A stretch of 64,000 bases of DNA, taken from a virus. The notes beneath the pieces were generated by a model, which was not told the origin of the DNA, did not search any database, and was given only the letters and a program-made list of their open reading frames with translations. Every line of letters starts with the position of its first letter. Positions within the stretch are counted from its first letter, which is position 1. Below are positions 382-63,907 of the stretch, piece after piece. The DNA lies in IMG/VR virus record IMGVR_UViG_3300030328_001739, positions 6,453 through 70,452 of that record. The stretch is one strand, 5' to 3'. A program made the position numbers and the translations under genes.

Positions 382-665
382 TGGTTGCACCTTCGCTCTG
401 TTCAACTTTCAAAGGCGTAACCCCGAGCGAGTTGCGGATGAAATATGCGGAGCAAGGAGGGCGTTACCTAATGGATATAGATTTAGTTGTAGCGGCTGAA
501 ATTAGTGCTAGAATAAGTGAGCAACAAGATACCGATTCTCCAGCAGCATCTTCTAGAAAAGCAACGAAAGCGGTTGCTAAAAGAAATCAACGCAGAGCCA
601 TGTTAGACCAACAAGGCTTAGGGCAAGCGTTAAATGACACATTCGGCAATATGGGAGATGATTAA
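381..665 (+). CDS. tail assembly chaperone C-terminal extension (gpT-like, probably reached by -1 frameshift)
   Basis: Lies in the -1 frame of 25..381 with no stop between 366 and its ATG; directly precedes the tape measure. Confidence 0.6.
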   Translation: MVAPSLCSTFKGVTPSELRMKYAEQGGRYLMDIDLVVAAEISARISEQQDTDSPAASSRKATKAVAKRNQRRAMLDQQGLGQALNDTFGNMGDD

Positions 666-667
666 CT

Positions 668-3600
668 ATGGCATCCCGTACAGGCTCGGCAAGAGTATTC
701 TTCGAGGTTGTTGGTTCATTCCAAGCAGAAAAACTTCTGAAAGATACACAAGCAACTTCTACTGTAATGCAAGCAATTATGCTTGATGCTTTTGGTGGTG
801 TGTTTGAGTCTATTCAATTTGCCTTTGAAGGTATAAGTGATTTGTTCAAAGAACAAATAGATTCGTTTTATGAGTTTGAAGAACAAATGATTCAAGTAAG
901 AAAGTTCTATCAAGGTTCAGAAGAAGATGTTCAGTTTTTCGCAGACGCATCTAAACATCTTGGTGAGACTTTTGCATTTAGTGGTTCAGAAGCATTAAAA
1001 GCAGCAGCAAACATGGCACAGATGCAGACAGTATTAGGTAGTAAACAAGCGGTTATTGCTGGTACAGAGATGGGTCTTCTCTTTGCTGAAATAGGTAACA
1101 TGGAAACACAAGAGGCTATGAAGAAACTTACTAGCCTTATGCAACAAACAGGCTTTGCTATGGGTGGTTTAACAAAGGCTCAATATGACTCTTTAGATGC
1201 TCAAGAACAAGCAAATGTTGTTCGTGGTAATACAATGCGTGTGTTAGACCAACTTAACACTATTGAAAACTCAAGCGTTGCTACAATGCAGGACATGACT
1301 TTCGTATTGAACCAGTTCGCAGCACAGGGTAACTTGGCGGGCGAAACAATGGGTAGTATGGGTGCTTTAGCCGCTATGCTATTAGAGGCTGGTGAAGAAA
1401 CTAGCAGGGCTGGAACTGGTCTAAGAATGATGTTCTCTAGGATAGCAGTAGATGGAGGAGATGCTTCCGAAGCATTAGCAAAAGTTATCCCTGAATTAGA
1501 CGCTCAAACTATATCCATGATGTCTTTAACAGAGATAATTAAAGCATTAACCCCTCACTATAAAGAACTAGATAATATAGAAAAGATACGTCTTACACAG
1601 GCTGTTGCTGGAAACAGACATTATGTCAAGTTACAGAAGTTGCTAGAAAACCATGATAGGTTGCTACAAATGAATGAAATGGCTTATGCTGGTAATTATA
1701 GTGCAGCAGAAGAGTTTAACAACAGACAAGAATCTATGGTGTTTCAAATTGATAGGGCTAATGCTGCTATTGAAAACCAAAGAGTAGAGGTAGGAGAAAA
1801 CTTAGCAGAGGCTTATGTTCGTTCTTTAGCCCCTCAATATTATTTCTTACAAGGTCTAGAAAAGATAACTGATGAATCAAGTGAGTTTATGGGTATAGCC
1901 TATGGAGGAAAAATGAACACCGCTATATCCAATATTATGTTTATGGCTGAAACTATGCAACAATTAGAAGTTCCAATCAATTTTGCTATGGGTCTAGGTA
2001 ATATATTTATCTCTATGAAAACTATGTCTGTTCTTTTGAAACAAATGACTCAACAAGAAAAGGCTCATACAGAGGCTTTCCATAGAAGAATATTTATACA
2101 AGAACAATCGGCAGCATTGGCTAATAAGTTTACACATAAACAAATTAGAGATATTAAAGAGGTTCAACAAGCAGAATTAAAAGCGTTAGATAAAAGTATT
2201 GCAGGAATGAATGCTAAAAGGGCTGCTGCTATAAAGGCTAATAGACAACAAGAATCTAATATTGCTAGGATAATAGAAGAACATAGAGCCATTGGTGCTT
2301 TAGATACTACCGCAAAGGTACAGAAAAGCAACGCTATGATGTTAGATGTAGAAGCAAGAAGAGTACAAATGACTAACCATAATAATACTATAAGAATGAT
2401 GGAATCGGAAATACTGTATATTAGAAATATAAGAGCCATGAAAGCAGACTATCAAGTTAATCAATTAAACTATTTTATGATGGAATCAGGATATAGAGCG
2501 CAACAACAAAAAGACCAAAAAAACTTTATGGGTCATATTCAACGAGAAGCAGATTACTTGTCTAAACATATAGTTATTTTTAGAGAATTAACAGAAGTAG
2601 AACTAGAGCAACTTGGTGTTAAGATAAACGATATTAATGTATCAATGAGAAGGCAACACCTTATGCTTTCAGAGGCTAGGCTTAGGTTACAGTTGGGTAC
2701 TTTAACAGAGGAAGAAACAATAGCACTAGAAGAAGAAATAGCCACTAGAGAAAAACATATTAGTAGTATGGGTAGAGAACTGGCGGGTATTGAAGGTCTA
2801 ATTAATGCTAACGGTCAACTAAAGGCTAGGACTGATGAAGTAACTAGGGCATTAGGTGGTCTTTCAACTTATATGGCTAAACACAAAGGCGACTTGAGCA
2901 GTTCAGCAATAGCAGTTAAGTATTTTGGTGATGCTTGGAATCAAGCCCGTTATAATATGTTTATTGCAGAAGGAGCATTCAAATCCACTATGTCTACTAT
3001 ACAATTAGGTATGTCATCAGTATTAGGTCTTATGATGTTATTTACAGACAATACTGATTTACTGTCTGCTGCTATGATTGGTCTTGCTCTTGCTAATGGT
3101 ATAGGTGCTGCTGCTACATGGGCTTATGCTGCGGCTGCTGATGGGGCTACTCTTAGTACTATACTAATGCAAGCAGCAGCGACATCGGGATTATCTTTAA
3201 TTGCTGCTGGTGCAGCCTTAGCAGCAGGTTATGTTCTTTGGGAAACATTCAAACCTGATAAAAACTTTGAGGACAGTATGTCTGCTATAACAGATTTAGA
3301 TAATGGTTTAGGAGACTTACAATCAACTATGACTGATTTGTCAAAGAAAGGAGATGTAACTATTGACACAATACTTGGTGATACTACTTACAATCAACTT
3401 AGAAATAGTGCTACAATGGCGGCAGACGCAGTTGGTCTAATAGCAGAGAAACAAGATGAATTAAATGCAGCAATACTAGATACAGATACTTATAGCGACG
3501 CAGAAATAAAAGCACTACAAACTAAACTAGGTTATTATGAACAAATAGGTAAGGAAGTAGGCACAATAAATGATGCACATATGTCTTTGAATAAAACAAT

Positions 3601-10200: not shown

Positions 10201-11187
10201 TGGTATGCACCTAGATTAAATGTTGTAGATGATGTTAACTACTATCCAGCAACTAACGTAACACTAACTGATACTCATATAGATTTATCATCACAAAGTA
10301 TGATAGTTAGAAACGTAAACTATCAAAGAAAAAACCAAAAGACACCAAATCTTTCTCTTACTTTAGAAAGAAATGAAGCAAGATACAAAAAGACGTTAGC
10401 CTCTTTATTCTCTGACGGTAAACCAACAGGAGGAATACAAGAAGGAGAAGGGCAACAAGGTAATCAAGCCAGTAACCCGCAAGGTCAAGGTCCATCATCC
10501 CCTAATAAGGAAGGTGGAATGAGAGATGGAGGATTTAAGTTAAACACTATGAGCCTTACTACTATGTCTAGGGTATCAGGCAAAACAGAGTTCAAAACTG
10601 ATGCTGGTAGTTCAGATGCAGAGTGGGGTGTAATAGGACAAAAAAAGATAGCAACGACTAGTACAGCCAGCACTACCGTTGATGGCTTTGATGCTGTTGT
10701 AACAGGTAGTGGTAGTGTTAGTTGTAGTGATGGTTTTGTTTTGCCGGGAACCTATATTGATGGTGATGGCGTTGCTAGAACGGGTGTATCTCACGAACAA
10801 TCATTTACAGTAAGAGTTCCTAGTGATTCAGTAGATAGTTTTGTTGTCTTAAAAGCACAGGCTACACTAGATGGAACTAAACAAACTGCAAGCCAAAACG
10901 CAGTCTTAACGATAAAAGTAGAATCAGAAGACAATACAAACTATGGTAGCAACACAATAACTATTGGTTCTACATCCACAGATAGAAAAGAATACGTGTT
11001 GTTTTCACAGAAGGTAAAAGGGGCTGTTGCTGGTAGCAACCTAAAGATTACTATAACTAGAAATCCCGGCTCAGGAAGCGATACAGCGTCTTATAGAGCA
11101 TTAAGAGTACACAATGTATCCTTATCTACTACAAGGGCTACAAATCCCTCTAAATCTAGTGCTAAGACATTTAAGCCTTATTCATAA
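4234..11187 (+). CDS. giant tail/baseplate or tail-tip protein
   Basis: 2317 aa, S/T/N/G-rich and beta-type, immediately after the tape measure; 'TREEALALAQKEY' resembles phage tail hub segments. Confidence 0.65.
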   Translation: MRTTTDEINVWLVGYYDDFQSSKSIADDLNAANATSTDHTITHHGNPMNGEAFNNPTFRYSYADRAQYTTYLVGSDSFSAAQLFTTTSPSIKNEGHHQWLTLDLIRNNKYDWEGRAQLQYPDSRRGTRQRFSGAAGDSYEAFVNAHDTRGLYYAPLGVIDSTAGRSRVYAANAADNDGDMYEGAGSHIRVDVEGQYGTKSISLAGVLMGEQMNTSSSSRGTSTKNLYPLKSPAGKPFLVSKLFGNSTGRHRILNYDGPMQFVGLGDTFNMRIAAHAMGGWGGERYTLNLGYKKADGFNKSNQTFGSNPLLTLEIPISNLGSYNSGNYLSINNYTASDNNGQWTDIDVVLDFSANTYKAYADGTLFSNGAFSNNWSAGDIYGWSLDVNCTGSMSKNVGMITCIDRAALYIPLGDAVQDTNYTPITSLTIDKQTNALSTVQVVISDDDNRYGVSGLISAEGFTEWDMIVFRDNLDRPIFWGTLSGMAHTQNPKSQTLDTLFVADEKYSLLDRQLPVWETGQNAYLSREGHLALNTQIEKNYNLVKNMGDILNTGTKKLTFNNSTIGFESSDFTTADNQRTSLGSSHPIQMYINEDVNGPNNAEKDWDGYDSPKYMLADTRYIFHPTTNFTYFVIDSTAHLVGSSGVSASNTIMSTFPDSAGTRTFTVSAITTMSRSGNAPDETPTSYKLLKVANSNNTTLTPTALCSQYQLLYTNLTDSTKKRLRFTTASAHGLTLGSKILFGSVIDPSSNNDPVSQAFLFDGGRYRILGVPSSTTFDIEVTNMTITTSAAQNFGAAGYRLPIINESGYSVTDNNLHIVGKDQTDYYTGKEGGYYRNVHTRWMRDISESLWFKSKFGVISKTCYHSAGKNTITNNPVAPTLASAYSQDTATFTGISSFTTSSTTLSCDDPAIWYYNVVLGKPGILDVIDPITKRRDTILFDGTSTPSTASLSYIQLNSGAAVTIDGNAWRNGFQVSDTTIKIWDIVVHTGFDNSELNGVFQVSGIYTQTGGVTKYVAVRIKGYDSKVNNASTVNTSWFDDPDDMWPLITRNSVVAGVDIGSYVVYEYTDKISAPTTTNASYNVASFTSSTGSIYFGSYNIQNVKGQRTDWTSGDFLYRYRQIDESNGYKHLWLLWSDMRNDGNADANDGKNISDFGLMLPTTSNYDLDLVFADQFDSDGDNTPFTSLKIGEEVDIWNIDADAEPYTGNDWSDLANASDTYKIGEIRSAGNTNPYSDWKNKGGSFLIIDTSRFFNMNTEATNGRPGYEVGGLAHFDDYDIPIAGTPYLLDAYWKKAVASYQNSGTLLNGTTTSNIANHPNQFNFLNDATLIDGDSIIIDQTSLVLQDATHFNLGSGVDGYGVIVATSGQDRYLYALRWNGVTGNTLTNVYIGGYTEMAVDPVSIRQFLDDSDSEWTLGSRANIQIKDPANTSSEGYDSVVVYNTPAALYGFRLLMSVDGYVSDKNSGTYYDSDKIRMLQNTALLNTWTRNSHLPAIVGIKNVPLTRNMTTTQIAHAGTDYEDFGSVTDIRNNTFQKGIDTIRRNSGSGSSGTNKIFSRVVGRDGMYDYRPSFNLNLALTRSNIKNANMKLDATGIVTNIRAYYDGNKAFVDYPEATTGTEARWKILDLSKVRTREEALALAQKEYDIKKSSAMSVDVQLIGTGTEKDPYLSGGKYGYIADPAVVTLEISNKEKYACSWTSLFGGIPYPGMCNAMDGISRSDKSNAIRAAIFNDRTSDLSSKLVILGCSEAAGGNGGIRWTASSLEIDWSKTHGGGSTGTFTIPDPSVSGFGSITSGSDKITFYYSAGMDLVADDNEQIEYINTFPAKDYYSNYGAKSISHALQIVHIPKSTPSVSANWGSELRFCISVTSGTSADDAEFTVHAIDYAFANTGGVSQFTATHKSNSSVLVNGNGFYELGFPSTYGATAGAKMIISVNTDYLRAILRTRCGDQIKNGSNIPGLSTFTSTDTRSLFPLGMKIDTGEGGISNERVAWYAPRLNVVDDVNYYPATNVTLTDTHIDLSSQSMIVRNVNYQRKNQKTPNLSLTLERNEARYKKTLASLFSDGKPTGGIQEGEGQQGNQASNPQGQGPSSPNKEGGMRDGGFKLNTMSLTTMSRVSGKTEFKTDAGSSDAEWGVIGQKKIATTSTASTTVDGFDAVVTGSGSVSCSDGFVLPGTYIDGDGVARTGVSHEQSFTVRVPSDSVDSFVVLKAQATLDGTKQTASQNAVLTIKVESEDNTNYGSNTITIGSTSTDRKEYVLFSQKVKGAVAGSNLKITITRNPGSGSDTASYRALRVHNVSLSTTRATNPSKSSAKTFKPYS

Positions 11188-11894
11188 TCTTCTCTAATAG
11201 AAATTATTCTCTCTGCCGTTGGGTTACTAATACCTTTAACTTTAGTTAAAGATTTTTTATTATTCTTTTTTAATAATATTTTGCTTAAAGAGCCAAACTC
11301 TTTTAGCAACGCATGAGCAGATTCTAAAGTAACCCCGGGAATTGTTGCTAACATTACAGCCCTATAATCCTCAGAAAAATTGCCGTTTCTTCGCACTCTT
11401 TTCTCTGCTGCTATTGCGTTGCTAACTGTTAGTTTAGTGTGGGAGGTTACTATCCAACTGACATAATCATCCATAGTAGCAAACTCAATATATCTAATCT
11501 TGGGGAATCTAGCGTACATATTCAATTTGAAATTGCGGATAACCCCTTTCATTTTCATTACTTCTTGAGCAACCACTTTTTTACTAGTTCTCTTTCTGAA
11601 ATAAGGCTTTAGTTGTGTACCATATACTGCTAAGATAGGGTATTCATAAGCATCACAAAGGTCTGCTAGTTGTTGTGTTAGGTTTCTATTCCTACCTATA
11701 CCCAATATAGTTCTGTATAAGTCATTGATTTCCTTTGCTTCTATACCCCAAGAGCCAATAACATAATCACCAGTTGATAATCTCTTTACCTTACCTTTAC
11801 CGTTTTTATCTATGTCAACATCACCAAGTCTACCTAGCAACGAATGAATAAGCGCAGGGTTCTCCCTGTCATCTATATACACTACCACGTACAC
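11178..11894 (-). CDS. ERCC4/XPF-family nuclease with C-terminal helix-hairpin-helix
   Basis: IDDRE, GDY, IEAKEINDL (ERK-like) motifs and two HhH motifs (IPGV, VKGIS). Confidence 0.85.
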   Translation of the reverse strand: MYVVVYIDDRENPALIHSLLGRLGDVDIDKNGKGKVKRLSTGDYVIGSWGIEAKEINDLYRTILGIGRNRNLTQQLADLCDAYEYPILAVYGTQLKPYFRKRTSKKVVAQEVMKMKGVIRNFKLNMYARFPKIRYIEFATMDDYVSWIVTSHTKLTVSNAIAAEKRVRRNGNFSEDYRAVMLATIPGVTLESAHALLKEFGSLSKILLKKNNKKSLTKVKGISNPTAERIISIREDYE

Positions 11895-11922
11895 CGATTA
11901 GGCAGTTGCTTGATAAAGGGTT

Positions 11923-12030
11923 CTAATCCCCACAGCAACCTACTACCTTTGTATGGCAGTTAAGACAGGCTCTAGAGCCATGTACCTCTATAAATCCTTT
12001 AACACTACCACAAAAAGGACAATGAGTCAT
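11923..12030 (-). CDS. 35-aa zinc-finger microprotein (not in ORF track)
   Basis: Hand translation MTHCPFCGSVKGFIEVHGSRACLNCHTKVVGCCGD; CPxCG plus CxxC; fills the gap between primase and ERCC4. Confidence 0.6.
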   Translation of the reverse strand: MTHCPFCGSVKGFIEVHGSRACLNCHTKVVGCCGD

Positions 12031-12052
12031 TATCCTACATTCTTCACTTTCT

Positions 12053-13066
12053 CTAATTACCACAATACCAACATCCGTTGCCATCACATAAATTATTTTT
12101 CTTAAACCAAGCAGGTGAAGGGTATCGTTTGTATTTGATTAATGATTTAACAGCCTTTCGGGTTATACTAGGTTTGTAATCAGACCAACCCAAAGTACCT
12201 ATAAAACTACATATTTCATCCTCTATACTTTGTGTTTGTTCTCTAGTCAAATCTTCGGGGTTAGCATACCATCTCAAAGATGCAGCCATGTGTTGACCCA
12301 ACGCTACCCTTACATGATGGGGTGGATTAGAGACTTGTATAGCCCTCTCTAGACAGGTGGGTAGGGGTACAGTAGTGGCTAGTGGTTCGCTGCCCGTAGG
12401 TAGGCTTGTAGAGCCTTTAATTGCCTCTTGTATTGCATCTTTATTATTCTTATACCATAGTGTTAAACTGAATCTATTACCTATTGGTACGCCACTAAAT
12501 GGATTTAGATGACTAAGGCTAGGGTCGGGTCTTTTAGGTATTCTATAATTAAATGGGTCCTTAGCAAATGCTCTAGCGTCAATAGTAACAGCCCATCTGT
12601 TTCTCTTAGGATTGTAAGTATCAGGTACTCTCGCTAATTTTTCGGGGTATCCTACCCCGTCTAAAGATAGCAACCCCGCAGCCATTGTCTTTTCGTAGTT
12701 ATCTAATCTTCCAGCCCAATCTCTGCCGATAACAGGCCTGTCAAAGAACTGATGAACATGAAACCCTCTACCAGTAGCAACACAACGAACATCTCCTTCT
12801 AATCTATTAATTAGAATAGCAACATCACTTTTTACTTGGTCCATAGTTATGTCGTTCATAATATCGAAATCCCACCATGCTCTATCCATAATAGCAGAGT
12901 CATAGTCTACCTTTCTATCATCAATCATATTATCAAAAGCATATAGGCTAGTATAAGTGGATGAAAGATTTTTCAATCTAGAAACGTAACTACTGAAATC
13001 TTTTTCAGTTAAGCATAATGCTCTCTTTAACCCTATTTGTCTAGGGAAACTTAGTAACTGCATCAT
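12053..13066 (-). CDS. archaeo-eukaryotic primase, PriS domain fused to PriL-like C-terminal domain
   Basis: WDFD (DxD), TGRGFHV and RVP motifs; C-terminal LPTCL..PPHHVR..Cys-rich region like PriL-CTD. Confidence 0.85.
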   Translation of the reverse strand: MMQLLSFPRQIGLKRALCLTEKDFSSYVSRLKNLSSTYTSLYAFDNMIDDRKVDYDSAIMDRAWWDFDIMNDITMDQVKSDVAILINRLEGDVRCVATGRGFHVHQFFDRPVIGRDWAGRLDNYEKTMAAGLLSLDGVGYPEKLARVPDTYNPKRNRWAVTIDARAFAKDPFNYRIPKRPDPSLSHLNPFSGVPIGNRFSLTLWYKNNKDAIQEAIKGSTSLPTGSEPLATTVPLPTCLERAIQVSNPPHHVRVALGQHMAASLRWYANPEDLTREQTQSIEDEICSFIGTLGWSDYKPSITRKAVKSLIKYKRYPSPAWFKKNNLCDGNGCWYCGN

Positions 13067-13221
13067 TATAACACCCTCGTATCTACAACGCCTTTATGAC
13101 CGCATATAGTACAAGTAGCAACGACAATTTCTAGTGTCGGCTTATCAACATCTCCAGTTACCTGCACGTAAGTTTCAACCTCTCCTAGTATATCTCCATC
13201 ACATTCTTCACATATCAACAA
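13066..13221 (-). CDS. about 51-aa zinc-ribbon protein (not in ORF track)
   Basis: Hand translation (L)LICEECDGD...ATCTICGHKG..VL*; its stop overlaps the primase ATG (TAATG); TTG start uncertain. Confidence 0.55.
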   Translation of the reverse strand: MLICEECDGDILGEVETYVQVTGDVDKPTLEIVVATCTICGHKGVVDTRVL

Positions 13222-14092
13222 ACGACACCCCCGCTACTTCTTCTTCACATGACATGACATAAGAACACCATTGAGGGCATCTCCAATCATCCCAATTCAT
13301 ATCCCATTCTTCGTTTCGTATCCTTTCCAAAAACGACTCGAATCGGGATTCAAATGATGTAACACTTCTCATATTAACCTTTTCAACAAGGGTTATACCT
13401 GCATCCTCTCCAACCCAAACAGTCTTATTTTTCTGCGACTGTAATGACCTTAGTAGTTTCTCACTTGTAGCATCAGGAAGTACATATATGAATCTAGTTG
13501 CTACTTCCCCATCCATATCTTCTAAGACCATACGATAGAAACATAGTTCCTTTCTAGTCTTTGTAATTTTATTTACGTTGCTATTTCCTGTCTTCAATTC
13601 TAATATTGCCAAAGTACCATCTTCATGTCTAACGACACCATCAATCATACCAGTAATAACAATATCATATTTCTCATTATAATAGACTCTTTTCTTTTCA
13701 ACTTCTACTGGGGCAAAGTTTTCAATACCCCAATGTTCTAATCTTTGTTGCTCTAGTTCTGCTAATGTCTCGAATACTTCGTCAGGGGGAAACAACGGCT
13801 TCAAATGATGTTGTCCTTCCCACGCCTCATAGAAATCTTCTAACCCTTGATGGATATAAGTACCTCTTATCATAGCCTCACTAGCGGGCATCCTCAAATC
13901 TTTTAGTATTACTTTATCCCAGTAGTATTGTCTAGGACAGTATTCATAATTCATAAAGGAAGATTTAGCAACACGCAATACTTTACCCTCTTCCGTTGGG
14001 TCATACGAGGAATATTCTCTAAGCGTTTCATCATCTGCACACTTCATACAAATATTAGTAACAGGATGGATTACACATTCACAAGAGGTCAT
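13208..14092 (-). CDS. Cas4/RecB-like PD-(D/E)XK exonuclease
   Basis: CPRQY, GTYIH, GMIDG, ELKTG and C-terminal CPQWC..C (Fe-S pattern). Confidence 0.85.
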   Translation of the reverse strand: MTSCECVIHPVTNICMKCADDETLREYSSYDPTEEGKVLRVAKSSFMNYEYCPRQYYWDKVILKDLRMPASEAMIRGTYIHQGLEDFYEAWEGQHHLKPLFPPDEVFETLAELEQQRLEHWGIENFAPVEVEKKRVYYNEKYDIVITGMIDGVVRHEDGTLAILELKTGNSNVNKITKTRKELCFYRMVLEDMDGEVATRFIYVLPDATSEKLLRSLQSQKNKTVWVGEDAGITLVEKVNMRSVTSFESRFESFLERIRNEEWDMNWDDWRCPQWCSYVMSCEEEVAGVSFVDM

Positions 14093-14165
14093 TCCTCTTC
14101 TCCTTTTATTTGTTCTATTTTGGGTTTGCGAGGATTAGTCCATAACGAAGAGGGTGTTCTTCTCG

Positions 14166-14444
14166 TCATTCCTCTTCCCCCACTTTAGTTTCTAAGTCGT
14201 TGTTACAGAATCTACAAATCAATTCATCTACTTCCATACCCGCAACCAACGGGATGTTATTCGTTTGACCGCAGTTAACGCAATCCGCCTGTCTTATTTT
14301 TCCTCTCTCTTTAAGGTCATTCAAGAGTAGGGTTGATACTAGATTTAGTTCTGCTAATACAACCTGTAAACCTTGATGTAGACTTAGTAAACCATTATTT
14401 AGGGCTTCTATATCCGTAGTTAATTCTTCGTTGCTTTTACTCAT
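14166..14444 (-). CDS. coiled-coil plus zinc-finger protein
   Basis: CxxC...CxxC; start moved to ATG 14444, 24 nt below a TTTATA box. Confidence 0.55.
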   Translation of the reverse strand: MSKSNEELTTDIEALNNGLLSLHQGLQVVLAELNLVSTLLLNDLKERGKIRQADCVNCGQTNNIPLVAGMEVDELICRFCNNDLETKVGEEE

Positions 14445-14464
14445 GGCCTTTCTACTAACCCTCT

Positions 14465-16711
14465 TCATATAAACCCAACGGTAGGTATTCCATGTAAAGC
14501 GTTGTATATAGGTTGTATCTCCCAATCCGCTACCTGATAATAAGGTTCTATTTTCTTAACTATGAATCTATCTATAATGTGGTGATACCCTATATCAGCA
14601 AAGCCCTCTATCTCTGATACTTCATCAAATGCAATATAATCCCCGTTGCTATCTAAGGTAACTAAGAAATCACTACCGTTTCGATAACCCTTACCTAGAT
14701 TATCATTAGCCCATTTAGCACCTGCCGAAACACCCGAAAGGACTTTATATTTACTTAAGTCCTTTTTGAGATTACCTTTCATACATAAATCTTGTAATGG
14801 ATAGTGTTCATCTAGTATACCTTGTATAGTTTCTACAACAAGTTCAGTATTTTTCTTTTCGTTGTTATCTTTATCATCCAATATATTATTTATTGTAGTA
14901 GACAAAACTTGTTTAACAACTGGGAACATTCTAGATTGTTTAAGTTCTATACCTTTGACATACAATTCAGGTTGCTGATATTCTCCATCCCCCCAAGTAA
15001 CTATACCTGCATAACGATTTTTAGCCTTTAGCAACAGACTTTTACACCACTTTTCAAACTCATTTTCTATTGGATACATTTTCTTATTCAATAATTTAGT
15101 CAACTCGACACCCTGCTCAGGGGTAGGGATGATAACGAATGCTGAATCTGTATGAGAGTAAAGTACTTCAAAACCCTCGTTCTCGCACTCTTCTCGCAAT
15201 TGTTGTAAAGTCATACGGGATGTATAGGTGATAGCCGCAGCCACCTTTGGATGGTATAAGCCATATTTAGAGTCTCCTGCCGCACCATAAATACTAGCAA
15301 CCAAAGACTTCGTAGCAAATTGAAGAGAATCATATCTATTTTTTTCCTCTTTAGTTTTAGCAGTCTTTAGTTTTTCTTTGTATTCTTGTCTCAATACCGT
15401 CATTTTATCCATCTGTCTAAGCAACAGACTAGGCTTACCTTGACTGAAACAAACCCCATTACCACAGTCTTTACCTTGTTTATCTAGTGTTTCATGTCCT
15501 ATGTTATGCAAATCTACGTTGCTATGATACATAGCCCTAATATCTAATATAGCAACATTATCAAACACACCAACCTTATCTATCTCTATCGAAGCACCCT
15601 CATAAGGCTCATATTCAAACTGAGGTTTAGTTGGTATTTGTAAATTAAAGTCATTGTCTCTCAAAGCCAATATTGTAAATATCTTAGTAATAAATGGTGT
15701 AGTTCTAATATCGCAACCAACAATATGTTGAATCGCAATATAGTGTTCTATACAATTATTTAGAGAGTTTAACTTAGGTAGCAACCTAACATCTTGTATA
15801 GAGTAATCCAAGTATGTACCGAAATCCGTATAGTAGGTTTCATGTCCTTCTTCTAGTTCTACCTTTGTCTCTTGTAGACATTCACTAGACACCGTTGCTA
15901 GGGATTTGTTAGGTAGTTGTCCGTTCTTTATGGTCCACAGTCTAGTAAACGCAATCATCATATCAATAGTATTGATACCGCCTATTGGTTGCGCCCAATC
16001 ACCAAAATTATATCTCACTCTATTGATAGGGGATAATGTTCTAGGGTCTAAGCCGTTGGCTTGGAATCTTTTGATTATCTTCTGTAAATCAGCATTGACT
16101 ACATTCCAACCTGTAATAACATCAGGGTCCTGTTTAACCAAATGTTTAGCAAAGGCCTTGAGCATTGATTTCTCGTTGCTAAATGCTATTGCTGGTTTAC
16201 CTTCTATGTGTAATTCATCTATCCCATCAGGGTGATTCTTACAAGGAAATGTATCGTAGAAACCTGCTTTGTAATCAGGATGTGTAAAGAATACATAGTA
16301 CTCGTTGCTAAAGGTATCATAGACTACCATTATTGTTAACTTACCTGTCCTAATAGACCACTCACAATCTAGATACCATACTCTATGATTATAGTTTTCA
16401 GGTAATACGTTGTTATCTACTAAGGCTCTGTTAACATACGGCACATTAGCCTCCCACGTTTCTAAGTGCGGCATATCCTGTCTAATAGTGTAAATGTCTT
16501 CGGGTGTTTTGGTGTATACTTTAGTCAATGATTCACCATATACCCCTTCATATCCAGTTTCATATCTCAATACAGAACTATGTTCTAGAGGTACTGCTAT
16601 ATCTTCTATGTAGAAGAAGGGTTGACAAGTATGCGTTTCAGTAATTCTTTTGCCGTTTGAATCTCTTACTCTTACTGATATTTTGTTACGGCCAGTCCGT
16701 TCAATTATCAC
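14465..16711 (-). CDS. polB: family B DNA polymerase
   Basis: Exo motifs DCE, GWNVVNAD, YSIQD; polymerase motifs DIRAMYHS, KSLVASIYG, YSHTDS, KNRY, KGIE. Confidence 0.95.
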   Translation of the reverse strand: MIIERTGRNKISVRVRDSNGKRITETHTCQPFFYIEDIAVPLEHSSVLRYETGYEGVYGESLTKVYTKTPEDIYTIRQDMPHLETWEANVPYVNRALVDNNVLPENYNHRVWYLDCEWSIRTGKLTIMVVYDTFSNEYYVFFTHPDYKAGFYDTFPCKNHPDGIDELHIEGKPAIAFSNEKSMLKAFAKHLVKQDPDVITGWNVVNADLQKIIKRFQANGLDPRTLSPINRVRYNFGDWAQPIGGINTIDMMIAFTRLWTIKNGQLPNKSLATVSSECLQETKVELEEGHETYYTDFGTYLDYSIQDVRLLPKLNSLNNCIEHYIAIQHIVGCDIRTTPFITKIFTILALRDNDFNLQIPTKPQFEYEPYEGASIEIDKVGVFDNVAILDIRAMYHSNVDLHNIGHETLDKQGKDCGNGVCFSQGKPSLLLRQMDKMTVLRQEYKEKLKTAKTKEEKNRYDSLQFATKSLVASIYGAAGDSKYGLYHPKVAAAITYTSRMTLQQLREECENEGFEVLYSHTDSAFVIIPTPEQGVELTKLLNKKMYPIENEFEKWCKSLLLKAKNRYAGIVTWGDGEYQQPELYVKGIELKQSRMFPVVKQVLSTTINNILDDKDNNEKKNTELVVETIQGILDEHYPLQDLCMKGNLKKDLSKYKVLSGVSAGAKWANDNLGKGYRNGSDFLVTLDSNGDYIAFDEVSEIEGFADIGYHHIIDRFIVKKIEPYYQVADWEIQPIYNALHGIPTVGFI

Positions 16712-17030
16712 GAACTCTACCCCTATTTCTAGTCTCTATATTATGGTGTTTTAACCAGTTATTAATAGCCATAGGGGATACCCCATATACATCTGCTATT
16801 TTTTGCATACTCATACCCTGTTCAACGTACATAGCAACCAATCGGTCTTTCCTTCTATATCCTTTGTCTGTAATTACACCTTGTAGTTTAACTGTCAAAT
16901 CAAATGTTTTTTCGCATTTAGGGCAACCTATGTAATAGAAACCAGTTTTACTTTCATTATAATCTAAGTATATCCCTCTATGGAGACTAAACTCATTTTC
17001 ACAACTACATCTAATTAGCACTTTCAACAC
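16701..17030 (-). CDS. zinc-ribbon plus HTH DNA-binding protein
   Basis: CSC..CPKC, then MSMQKIADVYGVSPMAINNWL HTH. Confidence 0.7.
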   Translation of the reverse strand: MLKVLIRCSCENEFSLHRGIYLDYNESKTGFYYIGCPKCEKTFDLTVKLQGVITDKGYRRKDRLVAMYVEQGMSMQKIADVYGVSPMAINNWLKHHNIETRNRGRVRDN

Positions 17031-17847
17031 CTACCTGCATAACTATGTTGCTACCATCAGTAAAGAGGAGAATAAAACCACCGCCATAATCTCTCATATC
17101 AAAAATACAAAGTATAATTACATCGTTGAAGTAATTAAGTACTTCTCCCAAACCGCCACCGAAGTCAATAGAGTAAGGAAATGCAAAATCCATCAAAGTA
17201 GTAGATGTTTTACCTTTCAATGTAGTACCACTTGTCAACACGGTTTTGTTATGTGAATTATGTAGAGTATATGTAGCAACGCTCTGCCCGTTAATATTAG
17301 AAGTATTAAAAGCATCAACCAACTTATCCCTATCCAAATCTGTTGTCAGACTAGGTTGGTGTATTTTCCCGTTGCTATCTCTATAACTACGCATAGGAAC
17401 GGTTATCTTACCGATTAACTCTTTTGCTTTCTTCCATTGTTGTAAAGCAGTTTCTCTAGAGGAGGGATATGCTCTGCAAAGTGATGAAGACATAAGAGAA
17501 GTACTTCTATTATCAGAAGTAATTAATAATTTAGTATTGTCATCTAATGAAACTATACTAACCGTATCACCATGAGTTTTCAATACCCCTAGCATATATG
17601 ATATATCTGCTATTACGAACTGAACGAATCCCCCCGCTTCACATTCCATTTTTAGTTCGTGTACGCTAGTTACACCATCCTTCACAGTACTAAAGATGGT
17701 TGCTTTATCACTATTTTGGTCGCACACAATAACACAAGCGTGGCATTGTGGTTGCTTACTTCCATTAATATAACTAAATCTTCTTGAAGCCTTTAGTAAA
17801 TCTTGTAACTTTTTATTGTCGAATATTACTCTATTGCTTGATGTCAT
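17011..17847 (-). CDS. putative divergent sliding clamp (PCNA-like)
   Basis: About 278 aa with a two-fold alpha/beta pattern; sits between PolB and RFC; no diagnostic motif; start moved to ATG 17847 on promoter spacing. Confidence 0.4.
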   Translation of the reverse strand: MTSSNRVIFDNKKLQDLLKASRRFSYINGSKQPQCHACVIVCDQNSDKATIFSTVKDGVTSVHELKMECEAGGFVQFVIADISYMLGVLKTHGDTVSIVSLDDNTKLLITSDNRSTSLMSSSLCRAYPSSRETALQQWKKAKELIGKITVPMRSYRDSNGKIHQPSLTTDLDRDKLVDAFNTSNINGQSVATYTLHNSHNKTVLTSGTTLKGKTSTTLMDFAFPYSIDFGGGLGEVLNYFNDVIILCIFDMRDYGGGFILLFTDGSNIVMQVGVESAN

Positions 17848-18127
17848 ATATATCCCTCTTACCTTCTCCATATAAACCCTTATCCAAATAATATAAATTA
17901 GTTACATTAGTTCTAGGTCCTTTTATTACTTTAACCTCTTTCATTCTACACATCACTTGCCCCAATTTAACTGCTGATAAATTAGGGGATTGTCTAGCGT
18001 TAGGGTTTATTCTAGGGTTTCTTTGTTCTTTGATTATATCGAGTACTCTTCTCGCTGATACAGGTCTTGTTTCGGTTGCTAGTGCAGATAGAATCCATCT
18101 CTTAACAAAATAGTTTCTTCTTACCAT
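17831..18127 (-). CDS. small basic winged-helix-like protein
   Basis: Basic, helix-helix-helix then beta hairpin ending in aromatic residues. Confidence 0.45.
   Translation of the reverse strand: MVRRNYFVKRWILSALATETRPVSARRVLDIIKEQRNPRINPNARQSPNLSAVKLGQVMCRMKEVKVIKGPRTNVTNLYYLDKGLYGEGKRDIYDIKQ
17865..17878 (-). promoter_or_regulatory. class I viral promoter GGTTTATATGGAGA
   Basis: TTTATA box 24 nt upstream of ATG 17847; same motif recurs at 14465, 21574, 23116, 28292, 29360 and 32105. Confidence 0.7.
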
Positions 18128-18136
18128 AAATAACCC

Positions 18137-19030
18137 TCATATACCGCTAAGTATGTGCGCAATAACGTCTACGGTCCATCCGTTACCTATGGCCTTGCGT
18201 CTTTGCGTTTCGGCAATACCTGTGGTATAATTATCCGGTAATGTCTGCAACCTTTCACATTCAAGATTTGTTAAATCTCTCCATTGTTCTCTAAGTGTAG
18301 TATCGTAAGCACCTGCGTATCTCCCATGAGGCAACTTACTAACAACCGCATCTTTTGAAACTGTTGTTAAGCAAGGGACAATATGAGAATCTTTCCTCAC
18401 TTGTAAACATTGAGTGATTGGAACGGACATATCATAATCCTTACGAACACCGTCTTTTAATCTCCGACCAGTTATGGTTGCTGAGTATTGGTATTCATCA
18501 TTCTCTAATATATCTGAAAGTTTTATACCTTTATCTTTTGGTAGGGTTACATTAGGGATATTAGTCCAATAGTATCTCTTTCTATTTTGAGCCGAGACTA
18601 ATGACGAATTGATAAATATAGGTTGGACCCCTAAACAATCTGATATAACATCTCTAATCTCATCTTTCATAACTACGTTTTCTAGCAACCAATACTTAGG
18701 CTTGTAATGACGTATAATATCAACAAAATCGAAGAATAGTTTACTACGTGGGTCATCAAAGTTCAATTTCTTACCTACACTTGAGAACCCTTGACATGGG
18801 CTACCACCAATGATTAAATCAATCTTCTCTATATCCCAATCTCGCCATTTTGTTATATCTCCTAGTTGTATAGTATCAGGCCAATTCTTTTGAGCAACAG
18901 TAATAGCATTCTTGTCTATCTCTGATGCGTAGTATTTGTCGTATGTAATACCCGCACGTTGTAAAGCCACTTGGCCGCAACTTATTCCATCAAATGTTCC
19001 TAATACAACTGAACAATGAACCATAAGCAA
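18137..19030 (-). CDS. DNA (cytosine-5)-methyltransferase
   Basis: FDGISCG (motif I), GGSPCQGFS (IV), ENV (VI), QNRKRYYW (VIII), ERLQT, GNGW (X); start may be ATG 19024. Confidence 0.95.
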   Translation of the reverse strand: MLMVHCSVVLGTFDGISCGQVALQRAGITYDKYYASEIDKNAITVAQKNWPDTIQLGDITKWRDWDIEKIDLIIGGSPCQGFSSVGKKLNFDDPRSKLFFDFVDIIRHYKPKYWLLENVVMKDEIRDVISDCLGVQPIFINSSLVSAQNRKRYYWTNIPNVTLPKDKGIKLSDILENDEYQYSATITGRRLKDGVRKDYDMSVPITQCLQVRKDSHIVPCLTTVSKDAVVSKLPHGRYAGAYDTTLREQWRDLTNLECERLQTLPDNYTTGIAETQRRKAIGNGWTVDVIAHILSGI

Positions 19031-19371
19031 CCCTCATAAATAGAATCACAGGCGGCGGCTTATCCGACTTGTTAATGCTTTATGTATTATCAGAACAGTT
19101 TGGGCGTTATAATCTAATCTCTCTCCGACCCTTCAACTAATGTTTCTTTATTCCGTTCTGTGCATATCGGTTACGGTTTTGGGCTAGCACCTGTTTATCT
19201 AGCCTCGCCACCATTTGTAATCTTATTCTTTGACCTCCATAAGCAACCCTCATAAATAGAATTACAGGCGGTGGCTTATCCGACGGCTCTCGTAAAGACG
19301 ATTGGATAACGGTTTGGACTACCCCAAATGTGTAGCCTCGCCACCATTTGTAATCTTATTCTTTGACCTCC
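19021..19371. repeat. tandem two-unit repeat with conserved flanks and different cores
   Basis: Block A 19021-19068 vs 19237-19284 (46/48 identical); block B 19200-19238 vs 19333-19371 (39/39); cores of 131 and 48 nt. Confidence 0.9.
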
Positions 19372-20357
19372 GTTGCTAGATTATTCCAGTTCAGGAACGG
19401 TAAGCCGTTCCAAATAACTTCTCCTTCTTTTACGGTAAGAACATCATGTGTTGTTCCTAGATATTCTTGATGAAGTCCTTTCATTTCTGTAATAGTACCT
19501 CTAACAACCCACTCGTTGCTATTTAGGCTAGCATCTTTCTTAACACCTGCCGCTAAGTCTCCTTTCTTACTAAATCTTGTCAACCAAATCTGTTGCGAGA
19601 AAAGTCTCTTTGTTCCGTTCTCCCATTCAGGGGTTTCACCGACTTTCATCAGACCCTTCTGACCGTTACCAATATCCATATATTCTTTGACATCTTTTAG
19701 ATGGAAAGTATAACCCACGAACGGGGCTTGTAGTTGATGCGCTCTGTTGATAACATCTCTAAATAATTGGTTTCTAGTTCTCCATTCCTTTTGATTAAAA
19801 GCATCACCTTCTTTCTCTATAACGCCTCTTCGTAGTAAAACATCAGTCATACTAAACTCACACCACTTTAGGAACGTGGAGCAACCATCTATGATAACCC
19901 CTCCTATTTCTCCAGTTCGGCATTGTTCACCTAAGATACGCATAAACCAAGACATCTTATCAACCAAAGCAACCCAGTTAGTAGAGTTGTCTTCGTTGAA
20001 TATAGAAGCATCAGAAGCATCGTATACAGGAATAACTTTGATACGGTTGTTATTAGGATAATTTACCATTACAGTCTGTGTAGCACTATTGTCTATATCT
20101 AGGATAATTACATCCCCTTGTGTAGTCTTTAAGGCTAAATCAATTAGTAATCCTGTCTTAGCAGTATTTTCTTTACCTACTGCTGCTAGTCTTACAGGGA
20201 AATGGTTGCTAGAACTACCTGATAACATATTAGTATAGTAGTCCCTACCATAACTAGACCTATCTTCAATAGGTTTGTCCGTAGAGGAAGGTATGGCTTG
20301 ACCCCAAGCCATTTTAATCCCACCCTTCCGGTTCGCCTTCTTCGTTGCCATCATCAT
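19356..20357 (-). CDS. P-loop ATPase (RecA/AAA_24-like)
   Basis: Walker A variant GKENTAKT, ILDID, Walker B VIIDG; true start probably the internal MAWG. Confidence 0.7.
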   Translation of the reverse strand: MMMATKKANRKGGIKMAWGQAIPSSTDKPIEDRSSYGRDYYTNMLSGSSSNHFPVRLAAVGKENTAKTGLLIDLALKTTQGDVIILDIDNSATQTVMVNYPNNNRIKVIPVYDASDASIFNEDNSTNWVALVDKMSWFMRILGEQCRTGEIGGVIIDGCSTFLKWCEFSMTDVLLRRGVIEKEGDAFNQKEWRTRNQLFRDVINRAHQLQAPFVGYTFHLKDVKEYMDIGNGQKGLMKVGETPEWENGTKRLFSQQIWLTRFSKKGDLAAGVKKDASLNSNEWVVRGTITEMKGLHQEYLGTTHDVLTVKEGEVIWNGLPFLNWNNLATEVKE

Positions 20358-21531: not shown

Positions 21532-21537
21532 ATTAGT

Positions 21538-42293: not shown

Positions 42294-42311
42294 TTTGCTC
42301 CTTTGGTTCTT

Positions 42312-44905: not shown

Positions 44906-45107
44906 TCATCATAGTGCTATTTAAGATTAGTGGAAAACCAACCCACTCAGCCATATACTCTACTAGGCTTTCTATTTCAGACCTATCTAATATTGCTGTC
45001 ATCATAGATTGTGTTTCATCAACTAAACAAATTACCAATGAGTCTTCGTCATCTACTGATTCACCAACTATTACAGCAGAGTCATTTGTTTGCCAACCAT
45101 CAACCAT
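44877..45107 (-). CDS. small acidic hypothetical protein
   Basis: Coupled between the phosphoesterase and TerL. Confidence 0.5.
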   Translation of the reverse strand: MVDGWQTNDSAVIVGESVDDEDSLVICLVDETQSMMTAILDRSEIESLVEYMAEWVGFPLILNSTMMSDEYEWTDE

Positions 45108-46348
45108 TAATTATCACCATTTAGTGTTTTTAATGTAGCAACGCCATCTCTTAAATCAGAGAACACTTGTATATGTCTTCTATCAGGGGATAGTATAACC
45201 ATAGGACAGGTAGCCCTTTCTTTTTGGAAACCAATCATTTCAGCAAAACTGTCTATTAGTTTATATGAACCCGGCCTAACAGCCCAACGCTCAAGACCAT
45301 GACGGGTGAACGGTTCTATTACAGGCGTGTGGTGATGACCTACTACACCTATATCAAAATCACACTCACCATCTTCCCACATCTTTTTAATTACTCTAGC
45401 AGGGTTAAGGGATGAGTTACCTCTTCTTTTGTGTCTAATAGAGAAGTTATAGGGGATATTATTAACTAACAGACGAATATTCAGTTCGTGGGCGTGGTAG
45501 ATGACATCTAGGTCTGCTACTTTCTTAGCAAGAGGGTCATAGTCTGTTGCACCACTAGTCCAAAGGTCGTGATTACCTGCTACTACTGCTAATATTTTAT
45601 CACCAAACATATCTAGGTAGTGGTCGCATAACTTCCATTGAACAGAAGGAGGGATACGTTGTTTCATAGCAGGTCTTGGTTTGTCAATCATAAAGTTATC
45701 AATAAAGTCTCCAGCGTGGATAACAAAGCAATTGTCTGTATCACGTACTAGTTCAGCATCTTCACGCATACGTGCGTGGTCTGTATAACTATTACCTATA
45801 TGTTGGTCGCTCGCTAAAGCAACACCTATGTAGCCTTTTGTGTTAAAGGTGATTTCAGCCCATCTAGCACTCTCCATATTAGTAATGCTTTTTGCTGATA
45901 ACTCTTCAACAGAAGCCCAAAGGTCTTCTACGCCTTGACTTATGCTTTTTAGATGTGTAGTTGTAAACTCATTCTTTTCTATTATAGTTAATGCGTTGTT
46001 AATTTTAGCATTGTGTATTCTTGCCTCCCAAGCCTTAATACTAATTTCAGGATGTTCTGCGTGAAGTTTTCTAGATAAAGACCTAGCAGTACCCTCCCAA
46101 GATTCAGGAATGTATTTATTTAGATTATTAGCCTTAGCATAAAATGTTTCAGGTACTTCTTCAGGGAAATCTTTTCTAAATGTTCGTACCTGCCAACGCC
46201 ATGCTTCTGTGGACTTCTCTTTGTATATGTTGCTAAGAAATCTAGCAAAGGCTGTATCTGAACCTAATTCGTGCCAATCTTCTTTGTGTTTTCGTATAGT
46301 ATTTAATTCGGGTGTTTTCATGCTTGTACGGCTTCCCATAGACCACAC
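45107..46348 (-). CDS. calcineurin-like metallophosphoesterase with N-terminal helical domains
   Basis: SDQHIG, GDFID, GNHD, RH, GHHH; start probably ATG 46339. Confidence 0.85.
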   Translation of the reverse strand: MWSMGSRTSMKTPELNTIRKHKEDWHELGSDTAFARFLSNIYKEKSTEAWRWQVRTFRKDFPEEVPETFYAKANNLNKYIPESWEGTARSLSRKLHAEHPEISIKAWEARIHNAKINNALTIIEKNEFTTTHLKSISQGVEDLWASVEELSAKSITNMESARWAEITFNTKGYIGVALASDQHIGNSYTDHARMREDAELVRDTDNCFVIHAGDFIDNFMIDKPRPAMKQRIPPSVQWKLCDHYLDMFGDKILAVVAGNHDLWTSGATDYDPLAKKVADLDVIYHAHELNIRLLVNNIPYNFSIRHKRRGNSSLNPARVIKKMWEDGECDFDIGVVGHHHTPVIEPFTRHGLERWAVRPGSYKLIDSFAEMIGFQKERATCPMVILSPDRRHIQVFSDLRDGVATLKTLNGDN

Positions 46349-63303: not shown

Positions 63304-63307
63304 TATT

Positions 63308-63907
63308 ATGACTTGGATAGGGGTCTTAGCAACAATAGCCCAAGAAGGGCAAGCAGGTGTTCCACCTACCGCTTGTTCTATCGCTACTGCATCAAGTAAT
63401 GCAGGTGGGAATACAGATGATGCGGCTTGGGTTTCTTCGGGTGCAGGGTGTTCCTCTCCTGCCGATGCTATGCACAGTATAGCCCAAACAGGAACAAGTA
63501 GTGGTTGGTCTAGTGCTGATAGTGGTACTACAAGTGAATATACTCATTCTGCCCCTGTTGATGCTATTTTGCCTTTTAATGGTTGTTCATCGGTGGATTA
63601 CATACAAATTAAAGGATATATTAGAGCAACAAACGCAACAAGTTTTGCTTGGAATTGCACAATTGATGATGTCAACCTGAGTAATTCTTGTTCGGTTTCT
63701 ATGGGTACTAATGCAACAGCACAAGATTGCACAGGTACTACTCATGCAAATACTTGTACCATGACTTTCGGTGGCGGTAGAGGTGGTATAACCGGCCCTG
63801 CTGCGGGAGATGAATTAAAACTTCTAGTTAGAGCAACCGCTACTAATGCTAATGGTACTACTACAATAGCCCCTAAAGTAAGAATAGTTTATGATTATGT
63901 AGCATGA
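63308..63907 (+). CDS. S/T/A/C-rich putative virion protein
   Basis: Follows the fibre gene; beta-rich. Confidence 0.55.
   Translation: MTWIGVLATIAQEGQAGVPPTACSIATASSNAGGNTDDAAWVSSGAGCSSPADAMHSIAQTGTSSGWSSADSGTTSEYTHSAPVDAILPFNGCSSVDYIQIKGYIRATNATSFAWNCTIDDVNLSNSCSVSMGTNATAQDCTGTTHANTCTMTFGGGRGGITGPAAGDELKLLVRATATNANGTTTIAPKVRIVYDYVA

Follow-up and report, generated by a model that had tools for sequence, protein, structure and literature searches.

TAGCAAC, a dispersed DNA word kept by selection in a clade of marine tailed viruses, and its possible role as a self-mark

The 64,000-nucleotide stretch of viral DNA discussed here (the window) comprises bases 6453-70452 of the 70,452-base IMG/VR record IMGVR_UViG_3300030328_001739, which is rated 100% complete and is labelled G000 in comparisons with its relatives. 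Scattered through it, within genes and between them, is the heptamer TAGCAAC (GTTGCTA on the opposite strand). Its enrichment is real, arises at the level of the DNA and is kept by selection on synonymous sites. Related viruses have either TAGCAAC or a different word of a common design, relatives at a greater distance have none, and several genes are confined to the clade whose members have such words. We read TAGCAAC, with a probability of about one in three, as a selected self-mark that is recognized by a virus-encoded factor and probably spares viral DNA from a nuclease.

Hyper-abundant genomic words such as Chi, the uptake sequences and HIP1 are rare. Each of them opened up an area of DNA biology, and HIP1 has gone unexplained for decades. 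When the same kind of signal is found in a small virus genome, the candidate readers number a few dozen genes. The reader should be within reach of experiment since the genome is 70 kb in size, specificity has been swapped naturally among the relatives, and some relatives lack the signal altogether.

Abundance and placement of the word

An earlier note, made from the sequence of the window alone, had put TAGCAAC at about 140 copies against roughly 8 expected, which proves close to the mark. An exact count gives 145, the first at 573 and the last at 63327-63333, while 100 dinucleotide-preserving shuffles gave 9.56 +/- 2.96 copies with a maximum of 20; none of the 100 reached 145, and the excess is about 17-fold. 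The seven example positions of the note and its intergenic ones are indeed occupied, save that the copy placed at 41191 lies at 41192. The entire record holds 153 copies (89 forward and 64 reverse), and the reversed word, counted as a control, occurs 6 and 10 times (16 in total).

By raw ratio, a few other 7-mers in the window rival TAGCAAC, among them CCAGTAG, CAGTAGG and CAGGACC with 108, 98 and 74 copies. All of these rivals trace to 9-base GXY collagen-like arrays at 55648-62961 in two fibre-like genes. In the first 55,500 bases TAGCAAC ranks first by count as well as by ratio, with 139 copies against 7.1 expected, and the 7-mers next in rank overlap it (AGCAACG, 69; AGCAACC, 67). The comparison with neighboring 7-mers proposed in the earlier note does not refute the enrichment, the competitors being collagen-like repeats and words overlapping TAGCAAC itself. 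With or without the repeat genes, the excess is of the size found in HIP-class words (at least about 15-fold). The core hexamer AGCAAC occurs 222 times in the same 55,500 bases, where 23.1 are expected, and 254 times in the window. T precedes this core in 57% of cases and A in 22%, T seldom follows it, and the outer flanks are nearly uninformative. Since the commonest 10-mer holding TAGCAAC has 12 copies, the copies do not belong to a longer repeat element, and they lack the common sequence beyond the word by which tandem or interspersed repeats are recognized. Nor does TAGCAAC resemble a restriction target under avoidance, as enrichment is the opposite in sign to depletion.

An excess of this kind might simply follow from composition, from codon usage or amino-acid content, or from the avoidance of other words. 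Codon and protein content alone do lift the expectation from 9 to 35, and the choices are narrowed further by the absence of AGCT, GATC and 42 of the 64 palindromic hexamers. However, when synonymous codons were shuffled within each gene, preserving all protein sequences and the per-gene codon usage, 100 such shuffles produced 34.6 +/- 3.7 copies and never more than 45, against 153 observed; the enrichment thus persists under the codon shuffle that the earlier note had named as a check. The copies are spread about evenly over four frames on the two strands, with 28 in sense frame 1, 38 in sense frame 2, 39 in antisense frame 0 and 31 in antisense frame 2. Antisense frame 1 holds a single copy, and eight are intergenic or partial. 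The vacant frames are vacant because the word would there need a TAG codon or TGC-TAN. Moreover, relatives that avoid the same words have a different dispersed word or lack one. An origin as a by-product is scarcely credible in the face of these results, and the description of TAGCAAC as a non-palindromic, dispersed, DNA-level word that is not a simple codon-pair effect is borne out by frames and shuffle alike. As in the HIP class, every usable frame and the DNA between genes are occupied, with no effect of peptide or codon.

The distribution is uneven. The densest part, at 3.1 copies per kb, is the early/replication block on the minus strand (11178..46348), which contains the genes for an ERCC4 nuclease, a Cas4-like protein, a family B polymerase (PolB), an RFC-like ATPase, a dNMP kinase, TerL and a phosphoesterase as well as small open reading frames (ORFs). 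Counted by gene strand, genes that share the strand of TerL have 3.11 copies per kb and those on the opposite strand 1.39, and three relatives repeat this two-fold contrast. The earlier note had described the replication and early regions as rich and the head and fibre region as poor in copies, which agrees with these figures; its term 'genome-wide' needs qualifying because of the same contrast. Of 291 tripeptide places that could spell the word synonymously, 143 do so; in the early/replication block this applies to 94 of 153 places (61%) and in the late block to 49 of 133. The early-block places able to spell the word exceed those in residue-shuffled proteins (153 against 99 +/- 9.7, maximum 126, in 200 shuffled protein sets), which indicates that the protein sequences of this block have been bent as well. 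Early-block genes without homologues in the relatives carry 1.68 copies per kb, compared with 3.1 for the block.

Orientation and spacing show little order. In the window 66 copies are sense and 71 antisense, and no bias with respect to the direction of transcription is seen in the early block (41:54, p 0.22) or in the late block (29:20, p 0.25). Runs of one orientation are absent (z -1.4) and both strands are represented in every block, while the overall ratio of 89 forward to 64 reverse copies (p 0.052) is patchy and amounts to no strand polarity. Spacing in the early block is as random, with a coefficient of variation of 0.92 and neither regular intervals nor pairing, and pairs less than 60 bases apart are not in excess (17 against 18.5 expected).

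This geometry separates the word from several known ones. Chi is likewise an over-represented oligomer and a 'self' signal to a nuclease, in which phages can be enriched. Chi works in a single orientation and has the host's RecBCD or AddAB as its reader, whereas here polarity is missing, the host is probably archaeal and the virus has recombination genes of its own, with a Cas4-like PD-(D/E)XK nuclease as the only part of RecBCD/AddAB-type machinery seen in it. Chi of Escherichia coli stands at roughly one copy per 4 to 5 kb, and the viral word is far denser. Architecture-imparting oligomers of the KOPS-like type show a strong skew that flips at origin and terminus, which TAGCAAC does not. The uptake sequences of Neisseria and Haemophilus (DUS and USS) occur about once per kb in both orientations, lie inside genes, are read by a machine and are said to be enriched in genome-maintenance genes. 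They serve uptake by competent cells, for which no viral counterpart is known unless packaging or entry is selective.

Sites on both strands at about one per 0.3 to 1 kb could also serve replication or recombination, either as the template word of a viral primase or as hot spots in a recombination-dependent mode of replication. PolB and RFC-like, Sak4-like and SSB-like proteins are encoded by the virus itself, and phages without Rec modules are reported to become enriched in Chi (PMC12315714). Against such a role, no primase domain was recognized among the 50 window proteins scanned, although several conserved proteins of the replication block have no assignment, the spacing is irregular, and the strand preference never switches along the genome. 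The same replication genes are present in relatives that have no word, and the recombination genes of the virus set it apart from the Chi-rich lambdoid phages. We therefore regard replication or recombination sites as quite unlikely.

Single, independent sites without polarity are what binding to duplex DNA would leave, and the word might thus mark sites for a viral architectural or regulatory protein concerned with early-gene shut-off, compaction or factory targeting, with no link to a nuclease. The density peaks over the early genes, and several small helix-turn-helix (HTH), winged-helix and zinc-finger proteins are encoded in the early block. There is also a half-site logic, in that GCAA is contained in all words of the related lineages described below but one (TCGCGA), and in TTGCAA and TTGCGCAA two half-sites overlap or abut. 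In intergenic DNA an extended form, ATTTAGCAACC, precedes some starts. It is found within 40730..42901 (+) at 40730, 41189 and 42889 and also at 41037 and 42846, and one copy is followed by an A-run and by an ATG 15 bases on. These intergenic copies possibly reflect a second use of the word in promoters. As a whole, however, TAGCAAC lacks the intergenic, upstream and co-oriented placement of a promoter element, and there is no intergenic excess (9 of 153 copies, where non-coding DNA makes up 7% of the genome). None of the candidate proteins matches the word cleanly in its distribution among the viruses (the HTH protein at 16701-17030 is also found in wordless relatives), and we know of no regulator with about 150 intragenic sites. 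This explanation is in our view unlikely.

A larger repeat unit around the intergenic copies was considered and rejected, as they have only the short extension ATTTAGCAACC in common. Amid them, at 41056-41090, lies a 17-base inverted repeat resembling a perfect stem.

The earlier note had also pointed to the X-box bound by RFX proteins. AGCAAC is indeed half of the X-boxes listed in one account, where the consensus is given as RYYNYY N1-3 RRNRAC (PMC2375033). The likeness goes no further: X-boxes are inverted pairs in eukaryote promoters, while the viral sites are single and mostly intragenic, the pair GTTGCY-N1-3-RGCAAC occurs at one place in the 64-kb window, and no RFX-type domain was found among the 50 window proteins scanned against Pfam.

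Conservation and switching among related viruses

Relatives were gathered as 68 loci by way of PolB or TerL; 17 records were taken in full, and the presence of genes was scored across 21 records. Of the sites that can be aligned with G001, at 82.5% nucleotide identity, 95 of 144 are intact there, whereas 33.5% of all 7-mers are; for G005, at 73% identity, the figures are 38 of 94 sites and 14.1% of 7-mers. Site conservation between related genomes thus goes beyond background, as in the HIP class. It is the third codon positions that are held: they are identical in 83.8% of cases inside the word and 68.3% outside it for G001, with corresponding values of 65.2% and 52.4% for G005 and of 67.1% and 52.9% for G006, while at codon positions 1 and 2 there is no difference between inside and outside. 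In the cyanobacterial HIP1 word (GCGATCGC), described as exceeding expectation 15- to 300-fold and as conserved both within ORFs and between them, synonymous sites kept in this manner were taken by Xu et al. as evidence of selection (PMC5861425). On the strength of site and third-position conservation, TAGCAAC behaves as a selected genomic word, and the precedents invoked in the earlier note (Chi, HIP1 and uptake sequences) were well chosen in this respect.

New sites continue to arise. When 100 sites were polarized with G005 and G006, 35 proved common to all four genomes, 33 were confined to G000 and G001, 25 were private to G000 and 7 had been lost in G001; gains of TAGCAAC sites are therefore ongoing. 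Among the differences listed (40 of 1081, from 4 public runs), a base change at 20746 (A>G, public run X4) falls within a copy of the word.

With about half of the synonymous opportunities used and many recent gains, the word might also accumulate by neutral drive, in which a bias of repair or conversion of the very-short-patch type, or a HIP ratchet, turns near-matches into TAGCAAC without the virus gaining from it. A precedent is the ratchet model of Elhai (PMC4390886), and the HNH-like nuclease of the clade could nick mismatches. A ratchet predicts, however, that one-letter neighbors should be depleted, and 17 of the 21 reach or exceed expectation (0.99- to 6.4-fold). Clearly under it are TAGCCAC (0.5-fold) and TAGCAAT (0.72-fold) together with TTGCAAC and TAGCTAC, which have no copies and contain TTGCAA and AGCT, both absent from the genome. 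Old synonymous sites have been kept across 18 to 27% divergence, and within one molecule the blocks have densities that lie two-fold apart. Since the neighbors are undepleted and old synonymous sites persist, the neutral ratchet is disfavored, and we consider it very unlikely.

The word itself is not constant in the clade. TAGCAAC is found in G001, G005 and G006 with 142, 113 and 114 copies, respectively. G002 has TTGCAA (81 against 8 expected) and G003 and G004 have TGCGCA (227 and 178 against 12 expected), as does the fragment G018 (45 against 2). TCGCAA is the word of G013, G014 and G015, with 111, 133 and 86 copies against 23, 27 and 17 expected; it is about 5-fold enriched in G019 and G020, and TCGCGA is found in G021 (38 against 6). 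In G013, G014 and G015, TAGCAA is also raised, 2.3- to 2.7-fold. The dispersed words of the relatives sit in coding DNA in all frames and have a common design, T-N-GC-N-A or T-GCGC-A. Top-word counts revealed no dispersed word in G007, G009 and G012.

TTGCAA, TCGCGA and TGCGCA, unlike TAGCAAC, are palindromes. In the TAGCAAC genomes TTGCAA has 0 copies against 21 to 23 expected and TGCGCA has 0 to 2 against 10 to 13, a scarcity that is the default fate of palindromes there. One word can stand where another does: of 45 G000 sites in orthologues, 11 coincide with TTGCAA sites of G002, where chance would give about 1.7, and all 11 read GTTGCTA on the coding strand of G000 and align with TTGCAA in G002. 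By our own reading, at a Val-Ala codon pair the difference between the two amounts to the synonymous choice of GCT or GCA.

The switching of words follows the virus. G005 and G006 avoid ACGT and GTAC, and G006 also CTAG, whereas G000 and G001 do not, yet all four have the same word. Conversely, G013 and G014 share the avoidance profile of G006 but have TCGCAA. From these two comparisons the word tracks the virus lineage and not the avoidance profile imposed by the host.

The nearest known phenomenon is HIP1 of cyanobacteria. Like HIP1, the viral word is indifferent to frame, conserved and replaced in relatives, and the size of its excess (17-fold) is similar. HIPs are GC-rich palindromes of cellular chromosomes with cognate methyltransferases, whereas TAGCAAC is a non-palindromic 7-mer of 43% GC in a 70-kb virus, is concentrated two-fold in one half of the genome and is tracked by no viral methyltransferase of the two families searched (PF00145 and PF01555). 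A full-text literature search with the word and its core, which did not extend to supplementary tables, retrieved unrelated uses only, and a search with the relatives' words and phage-genome terms retrieved nothing. Two papers on magroviruses (PMC5434244; PMC11706807), searched by term with supplementary k-mer tables not covered, have no such motifs.

By analogy with HIP1, the central GC of T-N-GC-N-A could be the target of a host or viral methyltransferase or other modifier. Dense marks would then serve strand discrimination in repair or signify 'modified = self', and the word would accumulate accordingly. Four of the five words (TAGCAA, TTGCAA, TCGCAA and TCGCGA) centre on a self-complementary GC, and TGCGCA centres on CG flanked by two GC steps. 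Their switching between lineages resembles that of the alternate HIPs, which are described as replacing HIP1 in some cyanobacterial lineages and tracking methyltransferases, and 1 to 3 copies per kb is the scale predicted by Elhai's model (PMC4390886). GATC, AGCT and CGCG are reportedly modified in metagenome-assembled genomes (MAGs) of marine archaea (PMC8919816). Weighing on the other side, no viral methyltransferase of PF00145 or PF01555 tracks the word (other families and host enzymes were not searched), and it is the virus lineage that the word follows, not the restriction-avoidance profile that reflects the host. For the non-palindromic TAGCAAC, moreover, hemimethylation would mark both daughters only if both cytosines of the GC were modified. 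A modification mark is for these reasons somewhat unlikely.

Some relatives have abundant words of a different character. A promoter-like word, CGACTAAA, is found in G010 with 35 of 39 copies intergenic, and another, ATCTACAA, in G011 with 41 of 54 copies intergenic and an extended form TATCTACAAA. In G008, which has no dispersed hexamer, a word of 9 to 12 bases recurs about 85 times; GGTTACAAA has 84 copies, 27 of them between genes and the others within genes in all three frames (43 sense, 14 antisense), and TGGTTACAAAAA has 41 forward and 10 reverse. In G002, bases 1 to about 10000 have 28-34% GC, ordinary levels of AGCT, GATC and CTAG and nearly no TTGCAA, whereas the remainder has 40-43% GC, none of these three tetramers and 4.8 TTGCAA per kb; either the contig is chimeric or its left 10 kb was recently imported as a module. 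When IMG/VR was searched for three copies of the word at gaps of 30 bases or less, the loci examined, at least 80, consisted of coding repeats in tandem, all pointing the same way, and among the matches listed none of the six densest matched a G000 protein.

Clade-confined genes and a possible reader

Six genes are confined to the clade with dispersed words, encoding a phosphoesterase, a dNMP kinase, an HNH-like protein, an AAA_5 ATPase, a DUF7192 protein and an OB-fold SSB-like protein. The first, a calcineurin-like phosphoesterase of the Mre11/SbcD type at 45107..46348 (-), is present in 11 of the 21 records. A word of the T-N-GC-N-A type is the top hexamer in 10 of these 11 and the second in the remaining one (G019). 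Among records that are at least 90% complete, six of nine have both the phosphoesterase and the word, and the other three (G008, G010 and G011) have neither. Phage homologues of the phosphoesterase carry an exonuclease annotation, and it is our candidate for the nuclease against which the word marks self. Directly behind it, overlapping by one base, is an ORF for a very acidic protein of 76 residues (44877..45107, -). An acidic ORF of 66 to 79 residues occupies this place in all nine genomes inspected, that is, G000 and eight relatives, and its product is by appearance possibly a nuclease partner, an inhibitor or a DNA mimic.

The HNH-like protein (32062..32625, -; 7 of 21 records) has an invariant CxxC..H..H..CxxCH..H pattern. 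Its assignment draws on this pattern, on profile matches (Pfam E 0.048; PADLOC E 0.0038) and on a language-model lead, and comparison of its profile with PDB sequences gave nothing relevant. It may be a sequence reader or a nickase. The dNMP kinase-like protein (22488..23096, -), found in 8 of 21 records, suggests nucleotide salvage.

From these elements a mechanism can be proposed. TAGCAAC, with its core AGCAAC and general form T-N-GC-A-A, would label the chromosomes of a clade of marine tailed viruses that probably infect Poseidoniales. A sequence-specific factor, most likely encoded by the viruses themselves, would read single, independent and orientation-free sites at the DNA level, and its specificity would drift from lineage to lineage, giving TAGCAAC, TTGCAA, TCGCAA, TCGCGA and TGCGCA. 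Viral DNA, chiefly its early/replication half, might then be spared, or otherwise handled unlike host DNA, by a nuclease system found only in the clade: the Mre11/SbcD-like phosphoesterase with its small acidic partner and the HNH-like protein, with the dNMP kinase for salvage. The word would be a viral counterpart of Chi or of HIP-type words. Among the functions guessed at in the earlier note, self-recognition against a nuclease accordingly ranks first for us, its basis being the circumstantial co-occurrence of genes.

A nuclease and salvage role is proposed by analogy with phage T5, in which the predicted metallophosphatase A1 is reported to be necessary and sufficient for degradation of host DNA (bioRxiv 10.64898/2026.04.02.716235). 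A1 drives the breakdown of host DNA while viral DNA survives, and the clade phosphoesterase belongs to the same superfamily. The analogy is imperfect in several ways. A1-bearing phages are not among the 23 tblastn matches of the phosphoesterase, and in the parts of the T5 account that bear on A1 no dispersed word is reported. T5 excretes its nucleotides and does not salvage them.

Several considerations weigh against a virus-encoded reader and nuclease protection. No protein is established as the reader of TAGCAAC, and a host-encoded reader may take the place of a viral one. The co-occurrence of genes and words may be plain phylogeny, as all of it lies in a single clade and so counts as one evolutionary event. 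The acidic ORF could itself be the safeguard, in which case a mark on the DNA would be unnecessary. A Chi-like attenuator should have strand polarity, which is not observed (89:64, p 0.052); a protective mark would be expected throughout the genome, but copies in the late block are less than half as dense as in the early one. Lastly, the HNH-like assignment depends on weak profile matches, and the model of that protein has no significant match among solved structures (best Foldseek E 1.5).

Carried one step further, the self-mark reading would give the clade a re-targetable word-recognition system of its own, in which selected words let a virus tell its chromosome from the host or rival DNA that is destroyed and the reader belongs to a new family. 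We hold this extension as doubtful but possible. If true, it would amount to a viral, non-palindromic counterpart of Chi and HIP and could reveal how the viruses of the abundant, uncultured Poseidoniales separate self from host DNA. The lineage words also provide a practical marker for sorting viral contigs into lineages.

Other proteins deserve mention as possible DNA binders. Adjoining PolB is a 109-residue protein with a Zn-ribbon and HTH_23 (16701..17030, -), a fast-evolving DNA-binding candidate that also occurs in relatives without a dispersed word. An 87-residue Crp-like winged-helix candidate (24379..24642, -) has a weak Pfam match. A phage zinc-finger DNA-binding candidate of 124 residues (33970..34344, -) is limited to the TAGCAAC lineage, with identities of 67% in G001, 34% in G005 and 37% in G006. 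Two further clade-specific proteins form a pair, the DUF7192 protein (37886-38902, -) and the AAA_5 ATPase of MoxR/CobS type (38948-40654, -; 8 of 21 records).

A protein of 244 residues (28475-29209, -) was tried as a reader, its conserved N-terminal and variable C-terminal halves having suggested a swapping of specificity; the C-terminal half differs between word lineages. Its model (pLDDT 72.5) is weakly similar to the OB folds of RPA and CST, with a VIA Z of 5 to 6 across about 110 residues and Foldseek E values no lower than 0.034, and the protein ends in an acidic FDEE..LENE tail. It is most likely a viral SSB and was therefore dropped as a reader.

A C5 cytosine methyltransferase (PF00145; 18137-19030, -) is encoded in this record only and is absent from 10 of 10 relatives, which rules it out as a conserved writer of the word. 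A tblastn search with it against the 68 related loci found no match, and in a scan of genome contigs its nearest relatives were all bacterial MAGs, at 31 to 58% identity. With one copy of the word in the gene and its restriction to this record, it appears to be a recent accessory gene. PF01555 methyltransferases occur in three of 11 genomes (G004, G014 and G010), the last of which has no dispersed word.

The virus and its probable host

The genome is that of a tailed virus, with a tape-measure-like protein, a portal and TerL identified. Also identified are the family B polymerase, an ERCC4-HhH nuclease, the Cas4-like nuclease, the RFC-like ATPase and the dNMP kinase, to which a Sak4-like ATPase may be added from a weak AAA_24 match (E 0.0013, below the Pfam cut-off). 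Among annotated phage records, the closest counterparts of the polymerase are found in haloarchaeal tailed viruses and are 22 to 24% identical to it. No tRNA was found in the window, and scans of the window proteins with PHROGs, NCBIfam and PADLOC added little.

The avoidance of short words is pronounced. AGCT and GATC have no copies against 253 expected for each, CGCG has 1 against 110, and asymmetric or degenerate words are missing along with the palindromic hexamers, including AAATTC (0 against 69) and hexamers that contain ACTCC, CASTG or GTSAC. The set of avoided tetramers varies among close relatives. In marine archaeal MAGs, modification is described for GATC, AGCT and CGCG, and in Poseidoniia for AGCT (PMC8919816). 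The avoidance profile thus fits an archaeal host, probably one of the Poseidoniales, although the argument is circumstantial.

A few features of the window stand apart. The two collagen-like genes with GXY repeats are large (54530-57466, 978 residues; 57505-63303, 1932 residues) and are built largely of the 9-base repeats, with higher-order units of 222 and 444 bases. In 4-kb bins, GC is 49-50% across 56001-64000 and 35-43% elsewhere in the window. An ORF of 2317 residues at 4234-11187 (+) has no Pfam match and is kept across the family at 28-85% identity; from a reading of its printed start, the 1050-residue homologue in G002 opens with a phosphoesterase-like motif.

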